Shown in pieces: positions 1,626 through 58,713 of a stretch of 64,000 nucleotides of DNA. Location: positions 1-64,000 of the forward strand of contig CDROCS010001386.1 of assembly GCA_977020255.1 (NCBI GenBank), read 5' to 3'. Origin of the DNA: Obrimoposthia wandeli (taxonomy: Eukaryota). Under the pieces are notes generated by a model. That model saw only the letters and a list, made by a program, of their open reading frames with translations. It made no database searches and was not told the DNA's origin. Position 1 is the first letter of the stretch; every line of letters starts with the position of its first letter. The translations under genes and the position numbers were made by a program.

Positions 1626-2263
1626 TCATGCTAGCAATCTTTGGTATTGAAAGCTGGGCACTGTTGTTGTAGCTTCATTTATTTCTCGTTGTTGCTTCCT
1701 CTTTTCGGTGTATTTTTCTATTTCTCGAACGAGTAACGGTTTGAATTCCGTATTCGGTCTATTCTGTTTGATGTAGACCATCGCTTCTTCTGGCGTGTGA
1801 CCATGGTACTCTACCAACAAGGATACACCTATGGTAGGCGCTAACATCGTACCTTTTTTCTGATATATCAGAACGCCGTTTCCTTCTGTGACTTCAGCTT
1901 GGATGGTTTGAGTCAATTTCGTCAGATGTTGTTGTGCATCGTTTATCTCTCTCGATTGGAAGCATGTATGTATCGAGTGGTGTCATCTTCAGTATTTTGA
2001 CACAGACTAATTATCTCGTTTCCGACTTCAACAATGTTGATTACCCGGTTGATACTGTGGAACTTTAATCCAGCAGTATCTATATCTCCTGGATGACATA
2101 AAAATACTTTTGGCATTATCTGTGTAATTTTGTCGACTCCGGCTAAAAATAACCCGGTCAACGATAATGCTTGGAGGAAATTCTTTTCCTTTGGATCCTC
2201 CGGAATGTCGTCCATCCGTCTTTGTTCTTGCAACAGAAGTTGATAATTTGCCAACTGTCCCAA
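1626..2263 (-). CDS. Second dual-specificity phosphatase-like domain, catalytically degenerate (pseudophosphatase); split by frameshift
   Basis: ITQIMPKVFLCHPGDI...INRVINIV and VLIYQKKGTMLAPTIGVSLLVEYHGHTPEEAMVYIKQNRP align to the DUSP pattern. The P-loop Cys and Arg of HCxxGxSRS are absent. Confidence 0.65.
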
Positions 2264-2267
2264 AAAA

Positions 2268-2650
2268 TTAAGATTTGGGTTTGCAATACTTCTTCTTCTT
2301 CTCCTGTAGGTATTTTAACGCTTCTAGTACCTGCATTCGTCTAGTCTTTATTAGATATGCTAATACTAGGGTTGCTGATCGAGAAATTCCTTTCTGACAA
2401 TGTACCAACACTTTTCCTTTGTTCCGGAGTTCTCTGTGAAGTATTTCGTTTGTTTCTACGAACCATTCGAGAAGATTAGCGTCCATTGAGTCTTTTACTC
2501 TTAATGTCATAGCTCTGATCGTCTGATATTATTGCGATTTGTGATTCATTGTAACGTTGATCACATATGTTATTCCTTGTTCCAACAGTTTCTTTTCATC
2601 TGTTGCATCCTCCACATTTCCGAGGTATAACTTACCTGGAATGATCTCAC
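2268..2650 (-). CDS. Dual-specificity protein phosphatase domain (intact active-site motif); split by frameshift at ~2520
   Basis: MSEIIPGKLYLGNVEDATDEKKLLEQGITYVINVT (ORF 2529..3401) is followed by VKDSMDANLLEWF...GKVLVHCQKGISRSATLVLAYLIKT (ORF 2268..2510), a canonical DUSP signature. Confidence 0.92.
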
Positions 2651-3860
2651 TCATTGGTGGCATTAATTCTGACTCTTCAAGTTTTAGTCTTTCTAACCTC
2701 TTCTCTATTTGTTCGTCGATGTTAGTTAGTTTCGCCAGTTTCTTTCCTCTCAGCATTCGTATTGCTGGAGAGATATTCATTTTTGTCTCTGATGTCTGTT
2801 CCTTTGTTGAGTCTTCTTCCGACTCGGTCTCCTCTGCAGATTTAATTCGTCTTTCTTGTATATTTTGTTTCACGAATTCTATGTTTTGTCTTTTTCTGCT
2901 TTCTTTAGCGAATTCAATCTCCATGGTTCTTCCGAATCGCTCTATTATGTTATCTTCGGATTCTGTTGATTCTGTATCGTTACTTTCCGGTTCGCTGTCT
3001 TCACTAGACTCGCTCGAAGGGTATTCTGGTATGTCTGTCTGAACTGAAATTAATGAAGGTGTTAGAATAATTGGATTGATTTCCCCTTCGTATTTGTGAA
3101 TCGGATACGGTATTACACTATCTTTAAGTATCTCAACTTGGAACTGTGCTCCATAGCACATGACAATTGTTTCCAATTTACCCATGATGGACAATCCATC
3201 AAAATAGGTAACATTCAGCTTAGATATCGGTGTCTTCGCATAATTAATTAAGTTTACTCTTTTCCGGTTGATGACGGCCATCGATTTTTGTAAAGTATAA
3301 TTTCGTCGTTTATCGATGTATGGCATTACACTTGGCGCGGACGATACTATTTCAGCATGATATTTTGGCTGAATTGAGTTGGTCACTTGTTCTCGGATCA
3401 TATTGATTCTTTGTGGCTTCTTATTTTTAGCTTCCCACTTCCGGTATCCGCTGTCAATGCGTAACTCTGCCGTTAACTTTGATGATTTTATTGTTAGTCA
3501 CTTCCGGATGGTTTGGCGAATGGAATCCCCCTTCTATTACGCTCAACCTTACAGATACTTCCGTTTGATCTGTCTCTAACCGGTGAGATTCTGGTATACA
3601 ACATACAATTGTTTTTCCATCAAAGTATTTAGTGTCCATCTGACAAATTATCTTTTCAGTGTCAGCGTCGATTAAATGGACTCTCATGATATCTCTTTTC
3701 CCATGTGAATTACGTAATACCATTGGCCATTACATCGTGAGTATTCTTGTTTGAGTCTTTTTGGCGTACCATGCAGTATGTGACCACCGGCCGGTTCCTT
3801 CTCTTCCTGGGTAGTCCTGCTTCAATTGCTGTCATAGTTCTGCCATGCAACTATGTTTGG
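2651..3860 (-). CDS. Unknown accessory polyprotein segment between integrase and DUSP (acidic Ser/Glu linker; possible divergent domains)
   Basis: ORFs 2529..3401 and 3454..3723 are co-oriented with, and adjoin, the neighbouring ORFs by small frame shifts. No confidently recognisable family. Confidence 0.5.
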
Positions 3861-3862
3861 TG

Positions 3863-5330
3863 TCAATGTGATTTCGTTATCACTTTCTCAGTTGTAAACA
3901 CATTGGAATTTTGATAAAGTGCTGCGACTAATGTATTTCCGTCGTAGTATAACACTCTAAGTTCGCACAGAAATTCGTTTTTGAGTGCATCTTGCACAAT
4001 GACTTCTTGATCCACATCTTTCGGTTGTGTTTTTTCTAAAACGACTATTATCTCTTCGTCTTCTTCTAATATCTCTTGTGGTGCGATGTGTCGGATTACT
4101 TCCTTTTCCTCTTGGTACTTCATTCTGAGCATACCAATTCTCGCTGATTTTTTCTCGCTACCACTCGTCATCATGTTTATGTAGTTCCGATCACTTACCA
4201 TTCGTGTAAGTTTAATGGTATTGGTATTTGGCTTCGATTTCTGTGATCTTAACTCATATCGTGACGCATTATCTTTATTTGGTACTAATTTGCATCGATT
4301 TGCATGTACAATCATCGGTTCCTTGTTCCGATTCTCTTCGTTGATTACTTTCAAATTTGTTGAAGTTGTCTGGATCACCTTGTATGGTCCTTTGTATGGT
4401 CTATGAAGTTTAAACGATAGACCTGGTTCGATGACTGGATAAAATATCATCCACTTGATCTCCGAAATAAATTCATGTGGTTTTGCTTTTTTTGTCGTAT
4501 TGTTCTTGTAACCTTCTTGATTGAATTTCAGCTTCAATCCGGCTTTGGTCCAAGCATCTTGTAACCTTTCCTTCATGACGACAATGTATTGTTCAGTTTC
4601 TAGGTACTGAGATGTTGGCTCGGTCCACTCCAGATCCATTGGCATATTGTTCTGTCTGAGATACATCAGATAGAATGGTGTGTGACCCGTCGCCTCTCGA
4701 ACTGAATTCCTGTAAGCATATAAACATGAAGGTAAATATTTATCCCAATCCTCTTGCTTGTCTGAGCAATAGGATTGTACCATCATACATAAAGTTTTTA
4801 TTAAACCTTTCTACCAGACCATCTGTCTGTGGGTGATATGGTGAAGTTTGTAACTTCATAATTCCGAATATCTTCGATACTGCTTTTATGACTTCTCCAG
4901 TGAAGTTCTTTCCTTGATCCGTTAACAACTTTCTAGGCACTCCGTATCGAAATATTATCTCTTCTACTAAGATTTGCGCTATTGTTTCAGCTTTCTGGTT
5001 CTGCATGGGATATGCTTCTACCCATCTCGTCATGTAATCCGTAAATACTATGACATACTTGTTTCCTTTACTTGATTCTCTCAATGGTCCCAATATATCC
5101 ATCGCTGTGAATTCCATTGGTGCCAAAGGAACTGGCATTGGTTTCAGTGGAACTTTAGTACGAGTTCAAGTGTCTTTTCTGGTTAAACATACTTTACATT
5201 GTTTACACCATTGTTTTTATGTCGTCTTCCATACCATCCCAATGGTTCTTCTCTTTGATTCTGGCTATCGTCTTTCGCCTGACAGATGTCCTCCCAGTGT
5301 TCCATCGTGATATTGGATCATCACTGCTGT
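3863..5330 (-). CDS. Integrase (HHCC, DDE core, GPY/F motif) with C-terminal extension; frameshifted
   Basis: YHDGTLGGHLSG...W...CKQCKVC lies at ~5310-5190. The core reads AMDILGP...TDQGKNF...YHPQTDGLVERFNK, followed by WDKYLPSCLYAYRNS...TPFYLMY and KLHRPYKGPYKV. Confidence 0.95.
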
Positions 5331-5510
5331 TTTCAATGACTTCGGAATTACTACTACTATCTTTCCGACATTATTGACAATATACAAGATTCCTTCTTTT
5401 TATCAGTATTTTTCGTCATTTCATCGTTTAGATCTCCTTTCACCAACAATTCTTTGATTAGACTCAGTTCTTCATCTTCTTTCTGTTCTTTGATGATCTC
5501 TTTGTCTATT

Positions 5511-6900
5511 TTACCCGTCTTTAGCAAAATCGTCAGTAGATTTTGCTTCTCCTTTTTGGTCATTGGTTTCATCTTCTTCTGGAATTATGTTTCCTTTCTC
5601 GTCTACATTTGTCAATCTCGATAAACAATCTGCGTTGCCATTCGACTTTCCGGTTCTATAACGGATTTCTAGATCGAATTCGGCCAATTTTAGAAACCAT
5701 CTGTTTAATCTACTCATCTCATCTCTATGTTTATATAAGAACTGTAGTGGTTTGTGATCTGTATACAGGAATACCTTTTGTCCTAGCAAATAGTGTCTGT
5801 ACTGTCTACATGAATACACTATGGCTAGACATTCCTTTTCGATAACAGAGTATCCTCTTTCGGCTCTGTTTAATCCTCTACTTGCATACGCAATGACGTG
5901 TTCTCTTCCTTCGTCATCCTCTTGTCCCAATACTGCTCCTACAGCATAGTTACTTGCATCTGTCATGAGTATGAATTGTCGGTTTATATCTGGAAACGCT
6001 AATATTGGTGCTTTTATCAATCTTTCTTTTAAATGCTCGAACGCTTGTTGAGCTTCTTCTCCCCATATGAACTTCTCATCTTTTCTCGTCAACTTTCTCA
6101 ATGGTGTTGCTATATCTGAAAAATGTTCAACAAATCGTCTATAATAATTCGCAAGACCTAAAAAACTCTGTATCTCCTTAACAGTCTTTGGCGCTAGATG
6201 CGCTTTTACTTTCTCGATCTTTGCTGGATCAGGTCGGATGCCTTCTTTCGATACTATATGTCCTAAAAATGTTACTCGCTCTTTAGCCCATTCGCATTTT
6301 GTAGGTTTAACTTTTAATTTAGCGTTTTCCAGTCTTTTAAATACAACTTCAAGATTTTTTAAATGTTCTTCGAACGTTTTCGAAAATATTATTATGTCAT
6401 CAATATAAACCATCGTGTTTGCACACGATGCGAGTACAAAATTCATGCAACGCTGAAATGTTGCTGGAGCTCCTGTCAGTCCGAATGGCATCTTTTTCGC
6501 ATTCGTATAATCCATCTCCGCAGGAAAAGGCTGTTTTGTGTTTATCCTCTTCCTCTATCTCGATTTGCCAGTATCCACTCTGCAAATCCAATGTCGTAAA
6601 ATAATCTGAATTACCCAATTTATCGAGCATCTCTTCGATTCTAGGTAATGGATACACATCTTTTCTTGTGATCTTGTTCAGTTCTCTGAAATCTATACAG
6701 AATCTCATTTTCCCATCCTTCTTTTTTTACCAACACCACAGGTGCTGAGAATGGCGAAAAACTCGGTCTAATTACTCCTGTTTTAGACATATCTTCGATC
6801 TGACTTTTTACTTCATCTTGTAATTGTAATGGTACTCGGTATGGTCTTCTTCTGACTACTTTGTCTTCTGTCAGTGGTATTGTGTGTTTTATGACAGGTG
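5511..6900 (-). CDS. Reverse transcriptase + RNase H; frameshifted at ~6725 and ~6500
   Basis: RFCIDFRELNK...YPLPRIEEML...LDLQSGYWQI, MPFGLTGAPATFQR, VYIDDIIIFS; RNase H TDASNYAVGAVL...EKECLAIV...TDHKPL. Confidence 0.97.
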
Positions 6901-6906
6901 TTTCTC

Positions 6907-7300
6907 CTATGTCATATGGATTTTTGCAATTACTTTTGGAAATTTATGTATTAGATCAAGTAATTGTTTCTTTTCTCTAGTTGTCAGTCTTTCTGATTGG
7001 ATTACTATTTCTTCGTAATCATTCGTATCTTTATCGAGTTTCATAGCGCATACAGTGGAATTCTCCATCTGTGCTATCTTTCCCAACCTCATTCCTCTGT
7101 ATAATAGAATGTCATTGTTGGTTGTATTCATCAGTCTAACTGGTATTTTGTGGTTTTCGATCAGACATACTGTACTCACAACTGGTAATTCGTATTTCTC
7201 TATGAAATCTCGTGATGGTTCGAACACAACTGGTCCTTTATCTTCTGATAATGTGTGACCTTGAATGAAATTGTGATCTTTTACCGATTTTTATAGGATT
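6907..7300 (-). CDS. PR-RT spacer region of Gypsy pol
   Basis: IPVRLMNTTNNDILLYRGMRLGKI resembles the spacer commonly seen upstream of RT in invertebrate Gypsy pol. It is linked to both neighbours by 1-nt shifts. Confidence 0.6.
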
Positions 7301-7313
7301 CTCTATAATTACA

Positions 7314-9377
7314 TCAATTTGGTTTTATTTGTCTGTTTGATGTACTATCCTTCAATCTTGGATCTTGTAAATCAATGCTTATCCCTTTAAGTTGTGATAG
7401 TACATCCATTCCTAAAATTGTAGGTTCAGGACATTCTTTCATGATTCTAACTGGTATAGTGATCGTATTACGTCCAATTATAAATGTACATGGTAATATT
7501 CCCGTCACTTTTACAGGGTCTCCATTGACCGATACCAAGAATTCATCTGGTTCTGCCATTGTTCGTTTCTGTTCCTCTGTCAAACAGTCTTCACTTACTA
7601 TCGAAGCTACAGCACCTGTATCAATTAAAGCTTTTACTCGTAAATTATTTACTCTAATGATAGCTGCTGGTCGCTGTGCTCCATTTATGTTTCCCATATG
7701 GTATATTGTATTTATCGAATTATTACACTCTGTCCGTCCACTTCCTATGTTTGGATAGTGAAATCTAATGTTTCTCACTTGTCGATCTATTATTCTTCGA
7801 CAAATCGGACATGATACCATTTCATTCGCACATCTCCGACATGTTCTTACATGTCCGCATGGTAGAAAGGCAACTTCTATTTTGTTGACCATGCAAACTG
7901 CGCATTCCGGATCTTCTAGTATGTATTCTAGTTCATTTATGTACTCTTTCTCTTTTGTTTCAATTGTACTGTCATCTTTATCTCGCAGTAATTCAAAAAT
8001 CGATCCGTATCCGTTTCGCGTAGTTTTTATTTTTAATTCTACCAATTCTCTGATTCTTTCTGCTTCTTTTGGATATAATCTTCTCACGAATGACACTACC
8101 GGTGTGTCTTGTTGAGCCAAAATCTCTTTCCGTGTGATTTGGTATTCGATTATACATTCGGTTTTCTGTTCCTTTTGCTTTATTTTGTTTTTTAAAGTAC
8201 AAAATTCGCAAAATTCATGATGTAAAATTTTCTTAGGTAGCTCAAGAGTGTATCTGTCGATAATTCGTTCTTTTTTACACTTGTGGCATTTAATTACGTC
8301 TTTACTTTTTGCCAATTTTTTAAGTCTTGGATCTTCGAAAGTTACTTCTCGATACTGTTCGTCACATTCGTTCACTTCTCGCATAACTTCGAATATATCT
8401 TCAATTCGACTATTCGTTATTACTCTACCTGTTATTAGAGCTGATTCTCCTTTTGGAATCCCGTCACTGTAATCGAAATCGGGTGCTTTTCCCATTTGGA
8501 TTTCTGGTACGTTTGACGTTTTCAGTTTCAAAAGAAATGGACAATTTGGTGCATCTCTTTTATGACGTCTCATTGGGTTTTCATTCTGTTCCCATTCTCT
8601 AAACTTTACTCTACACCATACGCATCGTACTACTATCTCCTGACCATAACTGCTTGTCGCGTTTAACATTTCTAAACCTGATCTTGCCATTTTACGTGCC
8701 ATTCCTTTTGAATAGTACTGTTCTAGTATGTTTCGTCTCTTTCTCTCGAATCTCATGGGATCCCTTTCTGACAGATTTACATATGTTATTTTTCTCCTCG
8801 TCGTATCTTGTGGTCCGAAATTTACATTTTTGTAGTGAAGTATCGACTTTGCTAGCGCTTCCTGTTTTTTGTCTGGGTACGAACTTCCCATACGGAACGT
8901 AGTGCATTTTTCCTTTTCGACTATAGGTCCTCTCAACATTTTTATCTCTCTCACTGAACTGTCATTCTTATTACTCTTGTTGTTTGGTAGTATAATTATT
9001 CCTTCAAACATTCGTATTACGTCCATCCCAATCATGACTGGACTACCGCAATCTGTGAATATTCTAGCATTCAACTGCAATGCTCTTCCATCGATATTCA
9101 ATGAACATTTTAGTGTTCCTTCCGACACTACATCTGTACCATTCACGTTAACAAATGTCTGTTTTCTAGGACATACTTCTCTTAATTCTTTTGATGACAA
9201 GATTTCTTTACTCAGTACTGATACTGCAGATCCGGTATCAACTTCGGCAAGATATTCTCTTCCGTTCAATGTTACTGCTACTTGTGGTGGAGCATTTGGA
9301 TTCTCATTGGATATCCTAGACTTCAGAATTCTTCTGGAATTATCTTTTTGTCTTTTCCTCTGCTTGTGGAATCTCAC
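7314..9377 (-). CDS. Aspartyl protease 1 - BIR - degenerate BIR - RING (IAP module) - aspartyl protease 2
   Basis: PR1: LAEVDTGSAVSVL...MIGMDVI. BIR1: CVWC-x16-H-x6-C (CVWCRVKFREWEQNENPMRRHKRDAPNCPFL). BIR2-like: TF..LA..DVIKCHKC-x18-H-x6-C. RING: CAVCMVNKIEVAFLPCGHVRTCRRCANEMVSCPICR. PR2: ALIDTGAVASIV...ILGMDVL. Confidence 0.92.
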   Translation of the reverse strand: MRFHKQRKRQKDNSRRILKSRISNENPNAPPQVAVTLNGREYLAEVDTGSAVSVLSKEILSSKELREVCPRKQTFVNVNGTDVVSEGTLKCSLNIDGRALQLNARIFTDCGSPVMIGMDVIRMFEGIIILPNNKSNKNDSSVREIKMLRGPIVEKEKCTTFRMGSSYPDKKQEALAKSILHYKNVNFGPQDTTRRKITYVNLSERDPMRFERKRRNILEQYYSKGMARKMARSGLEMLNATSSYGQEIVVRCVWCRVKFREWEQNENPMRRHKRDAPNCPFLLKLKTSNVPEIQMGKAPDFDYSDGIPKGESALITGRVITNSRIEDIFEVMREVNECDEQYREVTFEDPRLKKLAKSKDVIKCHKCKKERIIDRYTLELPKKILHHEFCEFCTLKNKIKQKEQKTECIIEYQITRKEILAQQDTPVVSFVRRLYPKEAERIRELVELKIKTTRNGYGSIFELLRDKDDSTIETKEKEYINELEYILEDPECAVCMVNKIEVAFLPCGHVRTCRRCANEMVSCPICRRIIDRQVRNIRFHYPNIGSGRTECNNSINTIYHMGNINGAQRPAAIIRVNNLRVKALIDTGAVASIVSEDCLTEEQKRTMAEPDEFLVSVNGDPVKVTGILPCTFIIGRNTITIPVRIMKECPEPTILGMDVLSQLKGISIDLQDPRLKDSTSNRQIKPN

Positions 9378-11504
9378 TGTAGCTCACTTTAGGCCATCTT
9401 ATCATTAAGATGCCTCTCTTGAACTTTTCCTTCTCTTCCTTTAATTCCTTCATTGGATATAGGTTTAACGCCACTTCTTCCTTGTCTGGTAACGGAATCT
9501 TCGGTTTTCCTGGTATCTTTGCATATACTCCTGGACTATCATTATCGTCGTCGTTATCGTCTCGATAGTTTCTTGGTTCTCTCATCATGGTTCTCGTTTG
9601 GTGTTGTTCCTTCTTGAGGGCTCGCAACTCGTTCTCGTGATGATGGTGCATTAGATATTTTGCTAAAAATGGAAAACATCCAATTATAAGTTGCCAGGTG
9701 ATTCCGGTTATCCTGTATAAACTATACGTAGACAACACCTGGGCTATAATTACCTGCACAAATTTAATTATAACATAAATACCTATGATACCCGAAAATA
9801 ATTGTCCTAAGACAAGGAATTTCCCCCACATCTTTCTAAGTGTCTGATGTGCTGCTTCCTTGAAATGACTTGGCGATAATAACATATCGAAATTCGCATA
9901 TCTCGCTCCTGGCGGTAATGCTCGATGTACCATCTCCGTAAGTACTCTGGCTCTTCTTACTGGAAACATTATTTCGTTCCACGCCGCTTTTAAATCTTTT
10001 TCATTGTACAATCCTGCGCTCTCCATATTTTCCACCGCTTGGAATTTCATTTTACCTTTAAGATTCGTCATTCTTATCATCGCTGGGGTTTTCGTTGCCT
10101 TCCGATCAGGTAACGTTATCCATAGATTATTCGTCATCTGATATTCAGGTGCCATTATATTAGAGCAGCTGATTTCTTTAGTTGGAGTGTCTTTTGGAAG
10201 TAACATTCTCGTGATTGGTTCAACAAAAAGATCTTTTAGATTATACGTTACTGCCAATTCACTCGTACATCGATTTGTTTTTCTCAACTGTACCTCTACT
10301 TTATTACACTTGTAAGTATACAATACTTCTCCCATGGTTTTAGCAAATACTCCTTCATCCAAGGGTAATAATGGTGCTACCATGTCTGGATTCGTAATAG
10401 CTAATGCTAACTTTGTTCTTACGATCTCTTTGTTTAGCTGGCAATCTCTTTCGATCATCATTCGATATAACTGTTCCATTTGCATCAATCCTTTATGATA
10501 ATAGAAATCAATTTTATTATTAAAATACGTGTGTAGCTGCATATCTTTAGGTTTTAGCTTGGTTTCTGCCAATGCTATTGCTTCTTTAGACAAAACTATT
10601 CCTGGATAGTTTGTAGTACTAACAGTCATTCCGCATCGCGCTTTGTTTCTCTTTTTAATAAATATCAATCCTTCTTCTATTGATGTTGCCATTAACAGTG
10701 TAGGTGTTTTTGTCATTGGGATTGGTCTTGTTTCATTTAACAATCCTTTTCCTGCTTTATTATACAGGAACCCTTCTCCATCCTTATTATACAGGAATCC
10801 TTTTATTTTATTAAAGCTAATCTCTTTCAAAAATACTAAAGAGCATTGCTTCGGATTTATGTTATACACAATTGTGGATTCACCTGTAAAACAAGATGCA
10901 TCTGTCATTTTACATTCTGGATACTTCATCATTAGTTGTGTCTTTTTATCAAAATTGGCGGTCCATGTTTTTAATTCGATTTTGTAAGTTACATCCATTA
11001 CTAACTCAGATACTTTGGTTCCACGCACGTTTTTTGTTTCTCCGTCACAAGATCCATCAGCCCATCGTTGTCCGACTCTCGTGACTGTTTCGTATCGTCT
11101 CACTCCAATTTGTACTTCAGGTTTGTAATTCTTGTCTACCTCTATCGTTCCGTTCGAAATGCATCTTCGCAATCTCTCGGCAAAACCTTATGTGCCTTGT
11201 ACGGTGTGGTAGGTGTGATTTCTGACATAAAACTTCTATGACCACAATAGAATTCGTGATAACTTGAATGGATTGAACATTCTTTCACTTCTACTTGTAC
11301 TTTATCAACATCCTGATACACAAAGTAGTTTTCAACACCTTGAACTTCTAGTTTTGACGGTTGTGATTCTGGGCAGTCTTCGCTGTCAAGCAGTGAATAC
11401 TTTTGTCCCATCTTTGGTATGCTACAGTCATATGCTATCAATCCTGATGCCTGTTGCATTCCCATAAACATTACTAACATCATCATCATCATTGTTGTGG
11501 ACAT
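9340..11504 (-). CDS. Envelope glycoprotein, chuvirus/Jingchuvirales-like (class III fusion-type); N-terminus encoded at the end of the gag ORF
   Basis: Signal peptide MSTTMMMMMLVMFMGMQQASG then LIAYDC...SLLDSEDC. A 1-nt shift at ~11150 joins the 610-aa ORF containing YFNNKIDFYY...DCQLNKEIV...GEVLYTYKCNKVEV...CTSELAV..LFVEPITRML and a C-terminal hydrophobic region. Confidence 0.8.
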
Positions 11505-14500
11505 ATTTGGTTGATTGTTTCTCTCTTTCGGACGGTATTGTTTATTTTCTCTTTGACGATTCTCATGACATTGTTCGTCATCGTCTTCGTTCATTTCCAC
11601 AATGGTTTTAGCGTAGTCACTTAATTTTGCCCAACCTCCGTTTTCGTCAATTCGTCTCTGTAATACATTCTCGATCAAATACATCGCTTCATTTATTCCT
11701 TGTTTGACTTCGTGAGGTTGGCTCGTTCGTTCCGTCAATTGGAAACATAGATATGTGATCGCTGTAATTAACTTTTTATTTGTAGTCTGGTTTCCACATA
11801 ATCTCGCTAAAACTTCACCGTCATAAAATCTATCTATCGATGCATGGTATACATGATTCGCGGTCATTCTCTTTACTGCAGACATCTGTGATCTAACTGC
11901 TTTAGTCAAATTGTCTGTTATATCGGTTGTTTCATCTCTGTACATTTTAAACAACTTCGGCTTCACTTGCCTGAGAATTCCCGTAAGTATATCTTTACTA
12001 CTTGGAGTTTCCGAATTCATATCACCTCTGATATCTTCATTCCTCTCTGCACTATACTGCTCTAATGACGCTGCTAACTGTCCAATACTTAGATGTCTCT
12101 CTTCATCAGTTTGTGGTGCTGTTAGAACATTTCGTAATATACTTTCGCCTTTTCTAGGTCTTCCAGGTCCTCTTCGAAAATACTGATACTCAGCTTGATT
12201 CTCTCCTGGATCATACGTTTCACCATTATACTGTATCTCTTGACTTGGTCCTTCTTCATGGCCAATCTCTTCATTTTGTCGCATCATTTGCTCTGCTTGT
12301 CTATCTTTGTATGCGGCATGCCAAATTGGTGAATCCAAATCTACAATCTCGGAGACTTCGTCTTCTCCTACTAGTTGGGTTACGGTTTCGTTTTGTCTCA
12401 CTTGGTTAGCTGTATCCGTGACTTCATCTTGTCTGATTGGAATTATATCTGGTTCTGGTGGCACCTCGACCACTGGAGTTGTCAACTCATTTTCTAAATT
12501 CATGTCTTGTAATTCAGCTACGTACGGTTCTGGTGTGGATGTCTTGTTCCAAGCTTCAGCTACATCATTATCTCCGCTTTCACTTGAACTGTCTAAAATT
12601 TCTATAGGCGTTTTTATCATTTCTAACGCAGAATTCAATATCTCGGTTAATCCTTCATTATCTACTAACTCTTGACGTCCTACAGTGATGACATCAATTT
12701 TTTCCTCTAATTCATTTCCTATCGGATATCCAAACTCGACTGGTACGTCCTCATCATCTAGTGATCTCACTTTATAATGGAACAACATATTCATTCCATC
12801 AATTTCAAGTTTCTCAGCCAAGTTTTTCCGAATCGTTTTCATTGTTTGATACACGTTAAGTTTTTCATGTATTATCTGTCCGGAAATTAATCGAAGTGAA
12901 ATTTTCATCGTTCCTTTTTGGTTTGATCTCTGTACATAACGACCATAACCTTTCAGTAATCCTCGGGGTACTTCTTTGTAACCCAAGTTATCATGACTAT
13001 GTTTAACCAATTCTGCACGCACTTCTTCCAATCGGTGCACTTTAATTGTTTGCAATTTGGCCAAAACTTCTGGAGCTTCACTCGTTTCATCTAACGGTTG
13101 ATTTAACGTCTCCTTAGCTTCACTAATTATCTTTTTTACATTTTCCATACTCGTAGCATTTCTTGCTGCTTCTACATGATCAGTCATAGGTTGTGCGTTA
13201 CACGTTTTCTCTATTGGTGTCTCATACGCTTCTAATATTCTATTCATTAAATCATTCATCTCTTCTCTCGAATGTGGACTTCTCTCTTGTTTCGACAACG
13301 TAGATGAATTCGCCATCTTTGTATGTGGTGAATCTTTAATTATTCCCAACATTCGTTCAAATTTACTATCACTATCCTCAAAATCTATTTCGCGTCGCAG
13401 CTCGGTTTCGCGATTCCTATCACTGTCATCGCTTACATAACTAAAATTTCCTTTCGGTTTCGGCGAACTCTCTCGACTATTTGTCTTGTCGACATTATTA
13501 TTATTATATCTACCAGAATTATTATATCTCTCAGCTCCTTGCTGTCCTACGTAATTATTGTATCTCTCAGCTCCTTGCTGTCTGTCTGCATAGTTATTGT
13601 ATCTACCTGGTGACTGTTGTCTATCTGTATACTGATTATTCAGTCTCCATGGCTGTGGAGTATATCCACCACCTCTATTCCATGGCGGAGGTGAATTATA
13701 TCCTCTATAATTATTTCCAAAATTATTATTACCGAAATTATTATTTCCAAATCTGTTAGTTCCGAACTCTTTACTTCTCGTACAATCTCTCGAATAGTGA
13801 CCCATTTGTTTACACGTGTAACACATTATTCTCCCTCGAATATCTATCTTATTTTGTTCATCTTCGAACTGTACTCGACGACTATTCTGTCTATTATCAT
13901 AGCGTCCTCTAAAATCATTTCTTCGGAAATTCGATTCAAAACCGCTTCCTCGATTATTGAATCTTCCGTCACTATTTCCTGCATTATTTCCAAATCGAGA
14001 GTCACTTCGCTCTCCTCTGTTTGCATTATAATTCCTATCGTCTCCTCTCCAAGGTTGGCGATTTCCTGAATTATCTCTATTAAATCTATTCCTGGAATCA
14101 TCTCTATTTCTATTCCACGAATCATTATTATTTCTACCTCTTGAATCATCTCGATTCCTGTTCCAAGACTCACTATTATTTCTACCTCTCGAATCATCTC
14201 GATTCCTACTTCGGAAATTATCTCTATTTCCGTTACTGGATTCATCTACTTTTTCAAACTTATTTTGTCCATAATTTCGATTCTGAAAATTACTCGGTTC
14301 TGTTTTATTCACGAAGACCTTTGTCTTATCGTCGTCACCTGCAGTCATTGCGTAGATTGCCAATGCTGCGTTATTTTTTATATTTTTCTCAATCTCTCTC
14401 GCCTTTCGTACGGCGTTATCAAAATCATTTGTATCCGATACTGCTAATAACACTTTAATATCCTTTTTCAATCCTCCTCTAAATATATCTAACAAGACCT

Positions 14501-15396
14501 CTGCCATTTCATTTTGGTTCCGGTCATTTTCCGCTGCTTGTGCTTCTGGAGCTACAGGATTACCGTCCTGATTTCTCATTATTCTTCTTGGGTACGCTCT
14601 TGCGGCCAAGGTTCTCAAAACATACGCGTATTCATTCACGCCTTCATCATGTTTCTGTTTCCGTTCTCTCATGAGTCGCTTATTTACTTTGGCTAAGTCT
14701 CCTAATACCAATTTTCCAATAAAAGCATTTTCCAACGTTGGCCAGTCTAAACGTTCTGCTTCTGTCAAATGTTTATACACTTCAAGTGCTAATCCGGTTA
14801 AATGTGCCTGTACTCTGACACATTTTTCTTTATCGTTCCATCCTTGAACATCTGCACAACTCGAATATTCTGCGAGGAAGTCACAAATACTTTCCTCATC
14901 TCCTTTAAACTTTGTAATCTGCAATGATCCTGAAAAATTGGGTCTCAACGTCGCATTTAAAGCTTGTGCCAACTGCTCGGCATTCATGTCACCTACATTA
15001 TTTCCTGCATTATTTTCTGCTTGAGCTCCTGGTTGAGCCATATTTTCAACTATAACTTCTTCAACTATTTCTTCAATATTATTCAATGGAACTTCCTCAA
15101 TCACTACTGGATTGGCAATTTCAAATTCTTCTTGGTCTATGTCACCAAATAATTCAGTCAAATTAAAACTGCCGGTTGAAACCGCTGATTGATCAACGTC
15201 TCTTTCTGATACGTTTTCTTCGACTCTAGTCTTTTCTGTTACTTTGTTATCTGTTTGGGGAACCTGTTCAATTCGGTTAACTTTATTATTATTTATCTCT
15301 TCCTTGGGAATCTGACTTTGTCTTCTAGTATTATACGCGGGTCCTTTTCTATTATCCGTTGTCTTATCAATTATGTATTCGTTTACGATATCAATT
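11142..15396 (-). CDS. Extended Gag polyprotein: capsid, R/N/D-rich repeats, CCHC knuckle, ubiquitin-like domain, AT-hook, Bcl-2-like domain, Env signal peptide
   Basis: Capsid-like FKGDEESICDFL...GWNDKEKC...LTGLALEVY...RKQKHDEGVNEYAYVLRTLA; CYTCKQMGHYSRDC at 13782-13824. The reading frame is open upstream of the listed start to a stop at ~15397. Confidence 0.88.
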
Positions 15397-15494
15397 TACT
15401 TATTATTTTTATCTTATTTCACAATTCTTATTTTACGATTTTTTATCTCTTTAATTAGTTCGAGGACAGAGTCTCCCGACTTAACTTATTCAAT

Positions 15495-16235
15495 TAATTA
15501 CTTCGAGTATCAATCCACTCGATTCTCACTTATCAAATTTACTGGCTCGAGGAACAAATCCACTCGACTTCTCAAAACCTATCAAACTCTTAACTTCGAG
15601 GAACAAATCTACCCGATTTCTCAAAAACTTATCAAATTCTTAACTTCGAGGAACAAATCTACCCGATTTCTCAACACTTATCAAATTCTTAACTTCGAGG
15701 AACAAATCTACCCGATTTCTTAAAAACTTATCAAATTCTTAACTTCGAGGAACAAATCTACCCGATTTCTCAACACTTATCAAATTCTTAACTTCGAGGA
15801 ACAAATCTACTCGATTTCTCAAAAACTTATCAAATTCTTAACTTCGAGGAACAAATCTACCCGATTTCTCAACACTTATCAAATTCTTAACTTCGAGGAA
15901 CAAATCTACCCGATTTCTCAACACTTATCAAATTCTTAACTTCGAGGAACAAATCTACTCGATTTCTCAAAAACTTATCAAATTCTTAACTTCGAGGAAC
16001 AAATCTACCCGATTTCTCAACACTTATCAAATTCTTAACTTCGAGGAACAAATCTACCCGATTTCTCAACACTTATCAAATTCTTAACTTCGAGGAACAA
16101 ATCTACTCGATTTCTCAAAAACTTATCAAATTCTTAACTTCGAGGAACAAATCTACCCGATTTCTCAACACTTATCAAATTCTTAACTTCGAGGAACAAA
16201 TCTACCCGATTTCTCAACACTTATCAAATTCTTAT
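15495..16235. repeat. Tandem array, 49-50 bp unit, ~15 copies, in the element's 5' leader
   Basis: Unit CACTTATCAAATTCTTAACTTCGAGGAACAAATCTACCCGATTTCTCAA, with period 49 measured at 15661/15710. Confidence 0.95.
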
Positions 16236-16289
16236 CTCAATTTACTTATATCTTCTTCTGAACTTATTCTCAATTGTCTATATTCTTCT

Positions 16290-16590
16290 GCTGAAACTTA
16301 TTCTCAATTTATCTGAAACTTATTCTCAATTTATCTGAAACTTATTCTCAATATCTGAAACTTATTCTTAATACCTGAAACTTATTCTTAATATCTGAAA
16401 CTTATTCTCAATATCTGAAACTTATTCTTAATATCTGTACTTATTCTCAATATCTGAAACTTATTCTTAATATCTGTACTTATTCTATTTACCTGAAACT
16501 TATTCTCAATTATCCGCAACTTATCTGAACTTATTCTATTCACCTGAAACTTATTCTCAATTATCCAAAACTTATCTGAACTTATTCTAC
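16290..16590. repeat. Tandem array, ~19-20 bp unit, in 5' leader
   Basis: Repeated CTGAAACTTATTCTCAAT(A/T) variants. Confidence 0.85.
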
Positions 16591-16615
16591 GTGAATTCGC
16601 TGTGTCCGACGAGCT

Positions 16616-16634
16616 ATCCTCACTCGGGGCACCA
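16616..16634 (-). promoter_or_regulatory. Primer-binding site complementary to elongator tRNA-Met
   Basis: The minus strand reads TGGTGCCCCGAGTGAGGAT, 8 nt after the LTR's CA end. It matches the 3' end of metazoan elongator tRNA-Met (human complement TGGTGCCCCGTGTGAGGAT from memory, 1 mismatch). Confidence 0.8.
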
Positions 16635-17048
16635 CTTTAATATGTTGGGGTTTCTATACGAAACTTGGTATAGAGCCTCTTAGTGTGCGGAGGACCCCAA
16701 CGTGAGTTCGATTAGAAGCAGGTCTTAAAGTTGGTCGTGGCCTACTTAGTGTTATGGTTGCCTAATCTCTTGTACTATCTGAAGGTGTTTGATTTGATGT
16801 CTCTTAGTCTGAAGGGTGTAAAAACAACTTGTTCTAATGTAGGAAATTGTTTATTCAAAATTCACGTAACTAACACCACAATACGTTTATGTACGTATTT
16901 CTAAAAAGTATGATAAAATTCCTAAAGGACTTCTGTGAGTCTCTACAAGAAGTGGGGATGAACCACGTATCGATTTTACGCTAAGGGGAATCGAGATTTT
17001 TAGAGTTGTTCCTTTAACTCGAGAATAAGCTCAAATTATAGATTTTCA

Positions 17049-17642
17049 AAAACTTTATTTTATCTTGGACAAACTTTAGATTATCAATACGCAATGAAGG
17101 GTAAAATCTTCTTTTAGATCGGATAAAACTTTATTTTATCTTGGGCAAACTTTAAATTGTCAATACGCAATGGAGGGTAAAATCTTCTTTTAAATCGGAT
17201 AAAACTTTATTTTATCTTGGGCAAACTTTAAATTGTCAATACGCAATGGAGGGTAAAATCTTCTTTTAAATCGGATAAAACTTTATTTTATCTTGGGCAA
17301 ACTTTAAATTGTCAATACGCAATGGAGGGTAAAATCTTCTTTTAAATAGGATAAAACTTTATTTTATCTTGGGCAAACTTTAAATTGTCAATATGCAATG
17401 CAGGGTAAAATCTTCTTTTAATCGGAAAAACTCTTTAAATTATCAATACGAAATGCAGGGCAAAATCCTCTTTTAATCGGAAAAACTCTTTAAATTATCA
17501 ATACGAAATGCAGGGCAAAATCCTCTTTTAATCGGAAAAACTCTTTAAATTATCAATACGAAATGCAGGGCAAAATCCTCTTTTAATCGGAAAAACTCTT
17601 TAAATTATCAATACGAAATGCAGGGCAAAATCCTCTTTTAAT
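17049..17642. repeat. LTR tandem arrays: 76-bp unit x~5 grading into related 55-bp unit x4
   Basis: Periods 17201/17277 and 17421/17476/17531/17586. Confidence 0.9.
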
Positions 17643-19192
17643 CTTTACTCAATAAAGGCCAAACTTCCTTAAATTTTCGGTCTTTATACCTTTATTTTCT
17701 CCGAAATCACTGGATCCTCGTCTCCTAGTATAGTCTGCTCGAGTTGGCGAGATCAGGAAATAGATTGAAATTAAATAGACTGGAGATAACTGGGAATTTG
17801 CTGCCTTGTGGTCTATTCCTCGGTAGATCGCGATATTGATTTTTCCGGTTGTAATTTCTTTTTCTTATCGACGACTTTTATAGTCGATTCTACAACTCCT
17901 GTCTGTCAGTCAGCAATGTCGACAGCGGTTTCACTGGAGTCTTTTGCGGCAGCTGAAAATTAATTTTAACACTCCAAATTAACTGCACGAAAATGTGCTT
18001 ACCTTGATTGACGGTTTGATTGACGTTGCTAATTTTCTTTTTCGACTATAATTAATTCTAATGTTTCCTTTTGCTTTTTTGCACTTTTAGTTGATTAATT
18101 CTAACTTTTATACACATTTCACACTATACACGACCTTCGTGGTCCTCCTAATTTTTACCCTAAATTCCACTAATTTTAATTCTAAAACTTAAATTAATAT
18201 TTTAATTTAATTTTCAACCTTGCTTTCAAGGATTTTTATTTTAGTATTTAATTTACTAAAATATTTAATTTTCTTAATTCTCAACCTTAACAAATTAGCC
18301 TAATAGATTTTGGCTCAAAAAAACTTACATTGAGGAATTGTTGAGACGTCTGGCAGTTGGCCGGTTCTCACAGTTTCTCACAGAGTTAAGTGGTTGCAGA
18401 ACAGGTGGCGAATTCCCACAATATTTTTCTGATTTTCTTCTTGTTTTCTTCTTCTTAATTATTGACTCTAATAATTGGAATTCTTTGGGCCCTTTTAATA
18501 ATTTTAAAATCTCTTATATATACCTACACAAGAAACATGACTCTTCAAGGTCTTAAATTTATTCAATCCCATTTTATTTAATTTAACATTTTTTAGTTAT
18601 TTATTTCACTTTCTTTAACCTTACTTTTAGGGTTATATTTTCTATATATATTAATTAAATTCAAAATCCTAATCCTAACACCTTTATTAATTCAATTTTA
18701 TCAAATTTAATTCGTATATAGATGTTATATCTATTGAAATTGTTAGGTTTAGGAATTAGAAAATTAAAATAATTAGTTGATTTTATACTAAAATAAAAAT
18801 CCTTGAAAGCAAGGTTGAAAATTAAATTAAATATTAATTTTGAAATTCAAAACTAAAATTATTGAAATTAAGATAAATATTAGGAGGACCACGAAGGTCG
18901 TGTATAGTGTGTGGTATATAAGGTTAGAATTAATTACTAGTAAAGTGCAAAAAAAGTGAACAATATAGAAAACTGCCAACGTCAGCAGAAAAAAGAAAAA
19001 CCACTAACGTCAGCAGAAACGAAAAGGTAATTAATTAAACATCTGCCAATTTCTGATATTTATGGAATCAGTTGAAATTGACAGAAGCAAAAAACCCAGG
19101 GCGCAACAAGGATCGGTCGAAGCAGCAACCGGAGCAGCAACAGGCAGGTGGTAATTTAGTGGTAGTGCTCGGTTTTAATCGATTATTTAGAT

Positions 19193-19488
19193 CACAATCA
19201 AAGTCGACTGTGCAGATTATTTGAAAAAGACATTTAATTGGAAAACCCAACGACAATCAAAGTCGACTGTGCAGATTATTTGAAAAAGACATTTAATTGG
19301 AAAACCCAACGACAATCAAAGTCGACTGTGCAGATTATTTGAAAAAGACATTTAATTGGAAAACCCAACGACAATCAAAGTCGACTGTGCAGATTATTTG
19401 AAAAAGACATTTAATTGGAAAACCCAACGACAATCAAAGTCAACTGTGCAGATTATTGGAAAAGACATTTAATTGGAAAACCCAACGA
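19193..19488. repeat. LTR tandem array, 59-bp unit x5
   Basis: Unit ACAATCAAAGTCGACTGTGCAGATTATTTGAAAAAGACATTTAATTGGAAAACCCAACG. Confidence 0.95.
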
Positions 19489-19562
19489 CTAGAAAAATCC
19501 ATCTAATTACCAAGCAGCGGATTCAGTGCCGGACTCTACCCACAGTTACGGATAGGTGAGAC

Positions 19563-20055
19563 GTCTCGCATAAATTCATTGTCCGAAGTTGACAATTAGG
19601 TTTTAACAATTTTAACTTGTCTCGCATAAATTCATTGTCCGAAGTTGACAATTAGGTTTTAACAATTTTAACTTGTCTCGCATAAATTCATTGTCCGAAG
19701 TTGACAATTAGGTTTTAACAATTTTAACTTGTCTCGCATAAATTCATTGTCCGAAGTTGACAATTAGGTTTTAACAATTTTAACTTGTCTCGCATAAATT
19801 CATTGTCCGAAGTTGACAATTAGGTTTTAACAATTTTAACTTGTCTCGCATAAATTCATTGTCCGAAGTTGACAATTAGGTTTTAACAATTTTAACTTGT
19901 CTCGCATAAATTCATTGTCCGAAGTTGACAATTAGGTTTTAACAATTTTAACTTGTCTCGCATAAATTCATTGTCCGAAGTTGACAATTAGGTTCTAACA
20001 ATTTTAACTTGTCTCGCATAATTTCATTCATTGTCCGAAGTTGACAATTAGGTTC
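19563..20055. repeat. LTR tandem array, 56-bp unit x~8.5
   Basis: Unit GTCTCGCATAAATTCATTGTCCGAAGTTGACAATTAGGTTTTAACAATTTTAACTT. Confidence 0.95.
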
Positions 20056-22496
20056 ACGAAATCATTGTCCATCGTTGACAATTAGGCCTTTATACGAATC
20101 ATTGTCCACAGTTGACAATTCGCGTCTGAATTCATAACAATAGAATTTGCCGAGTTAAGAAAGCTTTACCCACACGATCTAAGTTAAGTTGAAGAAGTTT
20201 TAAGAGAGTTGTGTTATAAATTAACCAACCTAGAAAGAAGATTTGCATTCGCACCTTTATTGTCATAAGAATAAAGGTTAAACCTCCAAAATTCAAGCCG
20301 ATAGCAAAGTTAAATTATTGAGAAATCCATAACGCGAGCTTATTCTCGAGTTAGAAGAATAACTCTAAAATCTCGATCACTCCGAACGTAAAATCGATAC
20401 GTGGTTCATCCCCACTTGTTGTAGAGACTTACAGAAGTCTTAGGAATTTTTACTATACTTTTTAGAAAATACGTACATAAACGTATTGTTGTGTTTAGTT
20501 TCGTGAATTACCAATAAACGATTTCCTACATTAGAACAAGTTGTTTTTGAACCCTTCAGAGTAAGAGACGTCAAAACAAACACCTTCAGATAAGAAAGAG
20601 AGATAGGCAACTATAACACTAAGTAGGCCACGACCAACTTTAAGACCTGCTTCTATTCGAACTCACGTTGGGGCCCTCCGCACATAAGAGGATCTGTACA
20701 AGTTTCGTATAGAAACCCCAACAAAATAAGTAATTTGTAAACAGTTTATGACACTATTGCTTGAGGTATGGATTTTATTAAAAAATAAATGTAGGATACA
20801 TTATTTAATATGTTATATTAATTCTTTCACATAGATAAAATTAAAGTTAATATCAATGGTTTTGAATTAGTTCGAAGTTCCCATTTATTATTAAAATAAA
20901 TCTTATAACTTCTAAAATAGTTTATTTTATGTTCAAACTCAAAATTATATTTATTCTTGTTAACATCACATGTTTATTTACGCCAATAAGCATAAAATTT
21001 GAAATATTACAAACTTAAATTCAGATTTTCTCTTTAAAAATACATGTATATATATTTATATTTAGCCAATTTTACGTATAAATTCGTCATCAATTTAATA
21101 TTATTAACCAATAAAATTATTATGAATATGATTGAAGATGAACCATAAGATTTTTCCATTGTTATACTTAAATAATATTTAATCAAATATAATTAATTGA
21201 TATTTCGAGTATTTTTATCCAAAAATTTGAAGTATGGCAATAATTGAATTCACAAATATTTAATTAAGATTCAATAGCTAGGAGGTCATGTAATCATAGT
21301 AAAATACAATAATCTAAATCAAGTTTGCATCATATCGATTTGCTACTGGAGCAAAAGAAAATAGAAAGAAAGTACAATGGTGCATGAATAAGAGTTCACC
21401 TCACAGAACCGATCAGACTGAGTATGAGAAAATAAGTAGAACAAAAACAGATATCGTAGTAGTAACAGTAACAGGCTCCGCCTTTTAAACAGTAGGAATC
21501 GGTCTAGCATCAACTAACTACGTTCATACAGTATCATAAAATATTTCAATAAAAATAGCATGATAGAAGCGACAAAAATCGAGAAATATGCCTAAGGTAT
21601 TAGTATAAAAATAATTTTACATAAATTATTATTGTATTGATTAATTTCATATTTAAATTACTATGTTAAAATTATTAAATTGACAATTAATATAAATTAT
21701 ATATAAAAAGTTGTTTTAATCCATTTTCTGCATGAATAAGTAAGTCAAAATGGCGATAATTAAAAGGTGCATTTATCATCATTTAATAAAATTAGGCATT
21801 GTTATGGATGTTTATGTGAGCTTAATATGAAAGTTAAGAGAGCTCAGGTACAAATAATGAATATATTGTTTCTTGCATAAATTCCTACTGTATGGAAGCA
21901 ATGTAAAAGTACGAATTTTATAAGAAGTTTTCTAAGCCTTCTAAACGAGATTGTATGTTTTACGCAAAATGCATATTAAAGATTGCATAGATTTGATTTT
22001 TGGGTGATAATATATACTAATGTATTCCGTATTCATTTCTATATACAGTTAATAGAATTAGAATGTGTCGTAACTATTCAGAAAAAAACAAATTTAAGGT
22101 ACTTTAGTTAAATTTCAATACGTTTATAAAATTAACTAATATAATTTATAAATATTTATGTTAAAAAACATATTCAATGTGTTATTCTTAGATTTTTGTG
22201 CTGTTGTATTTAAATGCCTTTGGTTGTACGTGCTCTTCAGGCCAACTCTGATTCTAATCGACTGTACTTCGTAGAATATCAGACTTGTCATGACAAAAGT
22301 ACCAGTTTTCGAGACATGTCCTGGAAATAGGTCAACTACGTATTGAACAAGATAGTTGTACTATTTCCAAGAAGCTGCGAAACTGACTTTTGACGACGTT
22401 GTCCGACAGTCCACGATCTATGCATATATCTGTGTATACACAATTGTTGGGTGCTGTCTGATGACCTGTGCATCATCACCATGGCGGTGGTACTCC

Positions 22497-56654: not shown

Positions 56655-57591
56655 TCTTAAAATGGATGTTTGAGCGAGTCAAATCCAAACAGAATCAGAA
56701 ACGTCTAACAATTCAATTTCCGATGAGCGTACTGCTCTACTAAATATCCATAGTTAATTTGAAAAATAAATCAATGTGGTTAAGATAATTGAATATATCG
56801 AGAATAACGCTATCACAATGGAGATAGCTGGAGGAGAATTAATCGAAAATCACCGAAATCAGCAGCAGCAGCAGTGTGACAGACTACTGGCAGGGGCAGC
56901 AACACCAATTCATGGAGGCACACCGATTTGTGGAGTTTGTTCTGGGTGCTGCATAAATGGCAGCCTAACCACAGTGCACCACGAATTTAGTTGAAGCTGT
57001 GTGCGGACAACGAAAGTACACTTTCTCGGAGAGCATCAGAGACTTTAGACGTTTTGAATTGTTGCAATTTGATTTAAAACTCAAATTGAACATAAGAAGA
57101 GTGTCAGGGGATTTTTCCTTGTTAATTTCTGTCATATTTTCTACTATACAGTTTCCAATTGGCAGGTTCTGGGTTAAACGCATTTGTGAACTGTAACAAA
57201 TAGGTAAATATAAATTGTTTATGTGGATGTGACAGTGATGTTTCTTCAATTTTTCCATTGCTGCTATTCCCTGTGTACATTTTCCATTGCGTAATATTTT
57301 CCTGGTGGAAATCACCAATTTTTATAATATTTTTAAATTTATATATGTTAAAACTGTTTGGTTAATAAAAAAATTTACACTTTAGTAGGTGGATGTGTCC
57401 GGTCTAATCCACACCCCCCCTCCCCCAGGCCCTTGTCCTTTAAAACCGTGCATGTGTGTGGAGTGAAATTTCGTGTAGGTGTGTGGAGTGAAATTTCACT
57501 CCATACACATGCACGATTTTAAAGGACAAGGGGGGGGATCCCACCCCCCCTACAAAATTTTCGCGCCTCTCGGCGAGAAGGGCTCGAGACT

Positions 57592-57985
57592 GATATATGT
57601 CACAGACTAGCTTGGCGATGTACGGATGTCTCGCTCTCATATATGTCACAGACTAGCTTGGCGATGTACGGATGTCTCGCTCTCATATATGTCACAGACT
57701 AGCTCTGCGATGTACGGATGTCTCGCTCTCATATATGTCACAGACTAGCTTGGCGATGTACGGATGTCTCGCTCTCATATATGTCACAGACTAGCTCTGC
57801 GATGTATGGATGTCTCGCTCTCATATATGTCACAGACTAGCTTGGCGATATACGAATGTCTCGCTTTCAAATATATGTCACAGACTAGCTTGGCGATGTG
57901 CGAATGTCTCGTTCTCATATATGTCACAGACTAGCTTGGGTGATGGGCGAATGTCTCGCTCTCGTGTATATCACTGACTACCTCG
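57592..57985. repeat. 46-bp tandem array inside left Polinton TIR (~9 copies; ~4 copies in right TIR)
   Basis: Unit ATATATGTCACAGACTAGCTTGGCGATGTACGGATGTCTCGCTCTC, period 57601/57647. Confidence 0.92.
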
Positions 57986-58713
57986 GGTGATTGGTGAAAG
58001 TCGATGGGTGTTGGATGGAAACACCCACCGACAACCACCCGCCCCTCTGGGGCGGGCTCTATTCTCTACACCACACCACACCACACCACCGAAATACTCC
58101 ACCCACCGCCCGCCCCTTCGGGGCGTGCTCCATTCTCGCGAAAATAACTACAAAAACATGCGCTACAGTATCACTTTACCTCTCACAACTACACATGTAG
58201 ACAACCCGTGTCACACCCCAGTCCCTAACATACACCGCACACCGCCCGACCCTTTGGGGTGGGCTTCATTCTTGATCTTTAGGCACGAAAAACATTACAA
58301 AAATATATTATTTGAATAAGACGCAATTTTTTTTGCGCCAAATTTAAAATTTTCAAAATGGCTTTTAAACAAAAAAATTAAAAATTAAAATAAAATTGTT
58401 TACAAAGTTTTTATAGTTTAAAAATAAAATTTTCCACATAATTTTTTACAACAATTTTTATATTTTAAAAAAGTAATTTTACACAGAACTTTTATACTTT
58501 AGAATTAAAATTTTCCACATAATTTTTTACAACAATTTTTATAGTTTAAAAAATAATTTTACATAGAACTTTTATACTTTAGAATTAAAATTTTACACAG
58601 AACTTTTATACTTTAGAATTTTAAACTTAGAAAAAGACGAATTGGATACAAATATTTATTAAACCAAAGAGAAAATTAGGTACAATAAATTTGTGACATA
58701 CAAATTCAAACAA

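Follow-up and report, generated by a model that had tools for sequence, protein, structure and literature searches.

A non-coding block of 4,081 bp in the genome of Obrimoposthia wandeli opens with TGTTG, closes with CAACA and carries inverted repeats both at its ends and around its centre, raising the question of what kind of element it belongs to and what its symmetry is for. The block occupies positions 16643-20723 of the window, by which we mean the whole stretch of 64,000 nucleotides analysed here (GenBank assembly GCA_977020255.1, contig CDROCS010001386.1, positions 1 to 64,000 of the forward strand). The best overall explanation, to which we assign a probability of roughly 60%, is that the block is the 5' long terminal repeat (LTR) of a decayed, giant, envelope (env)-bearing Ty3/Gypsy retrotransposon of the Burro type, lying on the minus strand, and that this LTR is built from two mirror halves.

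The symmetry can be read directly from the DNA. The terminal 25 nt of the left end are the reverse complement of the right end (25/25 identical), and BLASTN of the block against the window aligns the two outer arms in inverted orientation over 424 columns at 88% identity (E 4.5e-143) and a second, inner pair over 226 columns at 83% (E 1.4e-54). Comparison of the left half with the reversed right half gave a best score of 574, against 25-40 for all 20 shuffles. The original prediction of a palindromic block of about 4 kb with two nested inverted pairs is thus borne out, and the identical 25-nt ends it described are real, although the outer arms extend over about 419 bp rather than ~390 bp. The two pairs do not share an axis: that of the inner arms falls at 18514.5 and that of the outer arms at 18683, an offset of 168 bp. 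Identity along the outer arms drops from 92-96% over the first 100 columns to 84-90% deeper and 75% over the last 24, a gradient with its highest values at the tips, as expected under constraint on integrase ends or under conversion starting from the ends.

What lies beside the block points to an LTR. The gap between its terminal CA and a candidate tRNA-Met primer-binding site (PBS) is 8 nt, which exceeds the usual length. This site, which closely resembles the Met PBS given in an excerpt of PMC1084362, is the only one with at least 14 PBS matches when both strands of the window are considered; no tRNA genes were found in the window. Beyond it follow a 1.2-kb leader, nearly all of which is tandem repeat (49/50 bp x14 and 20 bp x12, plus units of 33 and 51 bp) and whose sense strand is strongly C-poor, and then a coding region in the order gag-env-pol. 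The internal region is A-rich on the sense strand, and the block itself is neutral. Together, the TG...CA ends, the unique tRNA-Met PBS, the leader and gag-env-pol support the LTR reading well; we regard the block as very probably an LTR, and probably the 5' LTR of an env-bearing Gypsy element. This part of the earlier identification stands, but a BLASTN search of the entire window with the block gave zero matches elsewhere, and hence neither a 3' LTR nor a solo copy. Because no second copy is present in the window, the label LTR is one that we infer. A-rich, coding-like sequence reaches position 1 of the window, placing the 3' end of the element outside it.

Alternatively, the inverted ends could be those of a DNA transposon, non-autonomous and either Ginger/Tdd-like or of the foldback kind, that landed immediately 5' of the PBS; the true LTR would then be lost or lie farther out. 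The ends fit the TGTNR pattern of Ginger elements, and TDD-4/5 are 3.8 kb long with terminal inverted repeats (TIRs) of 260-297 bp and 5-bp target-site duplications (TSDs; both from excerpts of PMC2836005). The 5-mers flanking the block agree at 4/5 positions, as do those at 3-5% of random host positions, and a DNA element elsewhere in the window (57384-62828) likewise combines long TIRs with internal tandem repeats. However, a DNA-transposon insertion is disfavoured by the lack of an exact TSD of 4-10 bp at the block ends, given that exact duplications do flank two further TIR elements of the window (one of 6 bp for the element at 57384-62828, TA for that at 35863-38081). The target sites of Ginger1 (CCGG/CCGT) and Ginger2 (RTATAY, 4 bp) are absent at the block, and its 419-bp outer arm exceeds the 40-297 bp range of Ginger1 and Ginger2 TIRs. 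Such a transposon would moreover need to have landed exactly at the expected LTR end, with the real LTR lost, and the DNA past 20723 looks like host sequence: it is AT-rich, contains at 20895-21118 a dispersed repeat that is 72% like 27405-27616, and leads into the exons of a PDZ-domain gene. We therefore consider a DNA transposon improbable.

Which element the putative LTR serves is indicated by the minus-strand coding order, which reads gag, env, protease, BIR, RING, protease, reverse transcriptase (RT), RNase H (RH), integrase (IN) and phosphatase-like open reading frames (ORFs), and includes the Ty3/Gypsy order protease (PR)-RT-RH-IN. The env gene lies between gag and protease and begins in the gag frame (PF24664, E 9.8e-13 and 3.6e-77); the BIR and RING domains match at E 6e-9 and 6e-12, and the phosphatase-like domains 3' of the integrase at Pfam E 2.5e-22 and 1.1e-4. 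This order matches that of the planarian Burro giants, which makes a 5' LTR the probable identity of the block, and if it is an LTR, we hold it highly likely, from the sequence, that the element is of the Burro type. Frame changes and stops interrupt env, the env/protease junction, RT, integrase and the phosphatase ORFs, a breakage that could reflect decay or assembly error. At least about 16.6 kb of internal region and one 4.1-kb LTR fall within the window, compared with a total above 30 kb for Burro-type elements, and further ORF fragments extend beyond the phosphatase-like domains to position 1.

Other coding segments match known families more weakly. Before env, matches to UBX (E 0.041), a ubiquitin variant (E 0.029) and Bcl-2 (E 0.071) were found; a relative, P0265, has a ubiquitin-like and then a Bcl-2-like segment in the same order, likewise weak, and another, P0121, echoes these segments. 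A single-sequence fold of the Bcl-2-like segment reached a predicted local distance difference test score of 42, a model too poor for structure search, and comparison of the segment with PDB and Atlas gave nothing useful. The segment between PR and RT, where Burro elements have a dUTPase-like one, had zero Pfam or PDB matches and is common to 3 of 14 relatives. The env search yielded 80 representatives with E values of 1e-30 or lower, and 12 long ones were scanned among the 150 listed: env is followed by protease in 10 of these 12, and five have RT as well. A quick tree built from 66 RT/RNase H segments places the RT of the window with three of the five RT-bearing relatives (SH-aLRT branch support 94). 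A search with the BIR-RING module gave nine matches resembling inhibitors of apoptosis (IAP), seven of them named as Mytilus and none as a retroelement; Mytilus IAPs were the best of the named matches. The proteases flanking this module are both aspartic, and a duplicated protease also occurs in several relatives without BIR.

Table 1. Features of the mirror block and the adjoining element, with positions in the window.
Feature	Positions	Strand	Basis or remark
Putative 5' LTR, 4,081 bp, TG...CA, non-coding	16643..20723	-	BLASTN and reading frames
Outer arm adjoining PBS (U5 side)	16643..17061	.	BLASTN
76-bp and 55-bp arrays, one family	17049..17643	.	AATAAA on minus strand in every 76-bp unit
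Inner arm 1, putative sense core promoter	18075..18296	-	Outward TATA box starting 18112; function putative
AT-rich 440-bp spacer	18297..18736	.	Without self-complementarity
Inner arm 2, putative antisense core promoter	18737..18954	+	Outward TATA box starting 18915; function putative
59-bp array	19194..19489	.	CCAAT on minus strand in every unit
56-bp array with degenerate 37-bp tail	19563..20120	.	TGACA in every unit
Outer arm, U3 side, inverted copy	20306..20723	.	BLASTN
tRNA-Met primer-binding site	16617..16634	-	16/18 nt as in Met PBS of PMC1084362 (excerpt); 8 nt past LTR end
Leader of tandem repeats, 49/50, 20, 33 and 51 bp	15396..16616	-	
gag with a single CCHC knuckle; weak matches to ubiquitin and Bcl-2; first (N) part of the fusion glycoprotein	11142..15395	-	
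Remainder of Monjiviricetes-type fusion glycoprotein (env), different frame	9340..11187	-	Pfam PF24664, E 3.6e-77
Protease - BIR - RING - protease	7314..9383	-	Profile matches
RT, RNase H, integrase, split over several frames	3863..7290	-	
Broken accessory ORFs encoding two dual-specificity phosphatase-like domains	1629..3497	-	Internal region continues toward position 1

Beyond the symmetry, ends, PBS and coding order, which are directly observed, we infer a design in which the LTR consists of two mirror half-LTRs, probably derived from one old fold-back duplication, each with an integrase end at one limit and a core promoter at the other. Integrase would thereby meet an identical end, formed by an outer arm, at either side. 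In both inner arms, an outward-facing TATAWAWR box stands 37 or 39 nt before the homology stops; the two boxes differ in sequence, are both canonical and closely follow, on its downstream side, a stretch of 33 bp that is identical in the two arms. This arrangement suggests, at slightly better than even odds, that the inner arms form a divergent (head-to-head) promoter pair. The minus-strand promoter, starting transcription near 18080, would produce the genomic RNA, giving a U3 of about 2.6 kb and an R plus U5 of about 1.4 kb; with a start at this point, U3 would take in the two inner arms together with the arrays of 59 and 56 bp. Candidate polyadenylation positions, which would set the extent of R, are 17696, the 76-bp array and 16855. 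The plus-strand promoter, with a predicted start near 18945, would yield antisense RNA, running from the 5' LTR into host DNA and from the 3' LTR into the element. In this window, an antisense transcript from the LTR would head toward the PDZ-domain host gene.

Between the arms lie the four minisatellites of the original prediction, located as it stated: 76 bp x5.1 (17049-17432), 55 bp x4.8 (17378-17643), 59 bp x5.0 (19194-19489) and 56 bp x8.7 (19563-20054, with the tail reaching 20120). The 55-mer corresponds to the 76-mer minus about 21 bp (p 0.003), however, so these units form one family and the block contains three repeat families. Interior copies of the four arrays are almost all identical, which indicates recent expansion. 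The 59- and 56-bp arrays, which repeat CCAAT and TGACA motifs, may act as enhancer-type repeats of U3 and would have expanded by slippage. As mirror copies of each other, left and right arrays gave no significant result (best p 0.04 uncorrected, 42 unit-pair/orientation tests), and although the minimum free energy (MFE) fold joins the 55-bp array to the 56-bp array in a helix of 143 bp, alignment against shuffles did not support this. The spacer holds a TATATATA run at most 4 bp from the inner axis. The longest of the 22 stop-to-stop frames that overlap the block encodes 85 amino acids, and Rfam over 15000-22000 at E 1 gave zero matches.

As a by-product of this design, the genomic RNA would contain duplexes of 200-400 bp (the inner U3 hairpin, and the U5 arm with the U3 arm) that would be expected to feed small-RNA silencing. 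The inner hairpin is predicted at -298 kcal/mol (z -17 against 20 shuffles) and the outer-arm duplex at -573 kcal/mol, with a 386-bp helix in the MFE structure; since any inverted repeat folds, such energies are no evidence of function. Mismatches in the outer arms comprise 10 that are G-U-compatible on the plus strand, 11 on the minus strand, 19 transversions and 11 gap columns (p = 1.0), and the inner arms have 2 versus 5 wobble mismatches, so that a strand bias, which would also reveal adenosine-to-inosine editing, is absent from both pairs. The fold-back double-stranded RNA (dsRNA) proposed earlier thus keeps its predicted duplexes, but the mismatches carry no sign of strand-specific selection for RNA pairing. 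This lack of bias, together with identity being highest at the tips, favours DNA-level roles (ends, promoters), with dsRNA as a consequence.

The outer duplex could instead be the main reason why the arms of this LTR are kept, if a panhandle of ~400 bp between the U5 and U3 arms circularised the genomic RNA and aided priming and strand transfer along a template of great length, as a giant counterpart of CYC5-CYC3 in Ty1. The arms are much longer than integrase should need, and the predicted 386-bp helix is consistent with such a structure; the CYC5-CYC3 pairing of Ty1 is short. In excerpts of PMC3592414, reverse transcription of Ty1 is reported to require CYC5-CYC3 pairing; in the block, too, pairing would join the PBS and polypurine tract (PPT) ends, yet over about 400 bp, inside the LTR and as a prediction, whereas the Ty1 version is experimentally shown. 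The mismatch spectrum without strand bias argues against a panhandle, although the decay of this copy blurs that test, and we consider this explanation unlikely. Neutral-looking mismatches and identity declining from the tips inward would also suit an LTR whose symmetry has no function, left by a chance fold-back duplication (or by a miniature inverted-repeat transposable element as the inner pair), with template switching or gene conversion keeping the arms similar. The inner homology stops at the would-be start site on both sides, though, and the inner pair has no convincing TSD or transposon-like ends (a scan allowing slack gave one 4-bp repeat), so that functionless symmetry has, in our estimate, little chance of being correct and the transposable-element origin of the inner pair was rejected.

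Besides the near-match of the flanking 5-mers and the long CA-to-PBS gap, several observations weigh against a Burro-type LTR with mirror halves and twin promoters. Neither a second LTR nor a PPT is visible within the window. In the sequence that separates the arm pairs, mirror homology is unclear (p 0.28, 0.43 and 0.027, uncorrected), and extending the inner arms over mirrored TGACG motifs gave p 0.12; a single duplication is therefore not demonstrated. The bidirectional promoter activity proposed earlier is supported at the sequence level by the mirrored outward TATA boxes, but a box occurs by chance in the last 50 nt of 10% of shuffled arms, the block contains eight TATA boxes, and the two in the inner arms are not independent. 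Among planarian promoters, moreover, TATA boxes are present in only 5% (PMC10558129). As for the Burro assignment, BIR was found in 0 of the 12 long env relatives scanned, there is one CCHC knuckle here versus three in Burro1, and the MATH, Smc and ankyrin domains of Burro1 gave no match at Pfam E 0.001.

The window also contains a host gene and several other repeats. Exons of the PDZ-domain gene lie at 24305-42968 (minus strand), with motifs that we take to be synaptopodin/myopodin-like. Host exons have a GC content at third codon positions of 55-76% (4/4 examined), against a background of roughly 25-30% GC, and differ in this from the AT-rich coding DNA of S. mediterranea; a search with the exons gave zero matches. 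The element at 57384-62828 measures 5.4 kb, with TIRs of about 700 bp that hold 46-bp arrays, AGTAG ends, an exact 6-bp TSD and no long ORF; its AG ends and 6-bp TSD presumably fit a non-autonomous Polinton/Maverick. That at 35863-38081 is 2.2 kb long and Tc1/mariner-like, with TIRs of about 230 bp, a TA duplication and short ORF fragments only. A third, at 31362-32683 (1.3 kb, TIRs of about 170 bp), showed no exact TSD at the ends tried, and its TIR mismatches lean to one strand (8 versus 1, p 0.04 uncorrected). Old dispersed repeat fragments, 66-79% alike and in both orientations, occur at 25303-26806, 35356-35701 and 45596-46346.

If the mirror half-LTR explanation is right, a palindromic LTR would typify a wider env-bearing Gypsy lineage rather than being a quirk of Burro1, and base-level predictions follow, namely two start sites, the limits of U3, R and U5, and the duplexes formed. 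Solo copies would be taken for DNA transposons by TIR finders. The locus is also relevant to the copying of retroelement RNAs of extreme length and to the way in which TIR-bearing Ginger elements might have arisen from LTR elements, an origin called unclear in an excerpt of PMC2836005. A more far-reaching and rather doubtful scenario is that a Burro-related, env-bearing Gypsy lineage outside Schmidtea, possibly beyond the two reported planarian families, has a working mirror LTR with both twin promoters and a ~400-bp panhandle, the latter allowing a genome of 20-30 kb to be reverse-transcribed. Since either end of one LTR would be the same integrase end, its solo LTRs could further be equivalent in structure to non-autonomous Ginger-like DNA transposons and so represent a living intermediate between LTR and TIR elements.

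Among known systems, Ginger1 and Ginger2/Tdd share with the block their TGTNR ends, TIRs of hundreds of bp and lengths of 2.6-7 kb (excerpts of PMC2836005); unlike them, the block has no transposase or exact TSD, has a longer TIR and adjoins a PBS and gag-pol. Maize Sirevirus LTRs are similar in having a palindrome-rich cis-regulatory region that can form hairpins and be a source of small RNAs, but they belong to a plant lineage, and their palindromes are limited to the cis-regulatory part, with no symmetry of the whole LTR reaching the ends (abstract of PMC4728375).

The closest likeness is to Burro. According to section 7 of PMC6431247, Burro elements encode a CCHC gag, ubiquitin/SUMO-like and BCL2-like domains, BIR and PR-RT-RH-IN, and their mononegavirus-like env stands in frame with gag and pol on either side; excerpts of PMC13465017 describe a BIR-RING region in Burro1 (B-IAP) and report expansion within the Dugesiidae and the Geoplanidae. 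The novelty implied by the original prediction was thus overstated, the anatomy of this element being that published for Burro in the section cited. Shared with Burro/GYPSM1 are the CCHC gag, a mononegavirus-type env before the protease, BIR-RING, RT-RH-IN, accessory ORFs and a multi-kb LTR, and possibly also ubiquitin-like and Bcl-2-like segments, which give weak matches here in the expected places. The polyprotein region is shorter, about 11.2 kb versus the 4,873 amino acids of Burro1 ORF1, two proteases surround BIR-RING, unlike in Burro, and the missing MATH, Smc and ankyrin domains indicate that the element is not Burro1 itself. For the Burro-1 LTR, Grohme et al. 2018 reportedly describe palindromic subdomains on both sides of a spacer, with transcription in both directions and dsRNA as possibilities; the oddity of a palindromic LTR would thus itself be already published. 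The literature searched contained no description of a palindromic LTR, but Grohme 2018 and Lee 2026 lay outside it, so that this is no evidence of absence; excerpts of PMC8797187, PMC10899757, PMC13238120, PMC13309565, PMC11410931 and PMC8532177 do not address LTR structure. The phosphatase-like 3' ORFs are absent from the Burro domain list in section 7 of PMC6431247. This locus adds a new family that carries phosphatase cargo, perhaps from a host not previously represented, and a testable map of the putative twin promoters.

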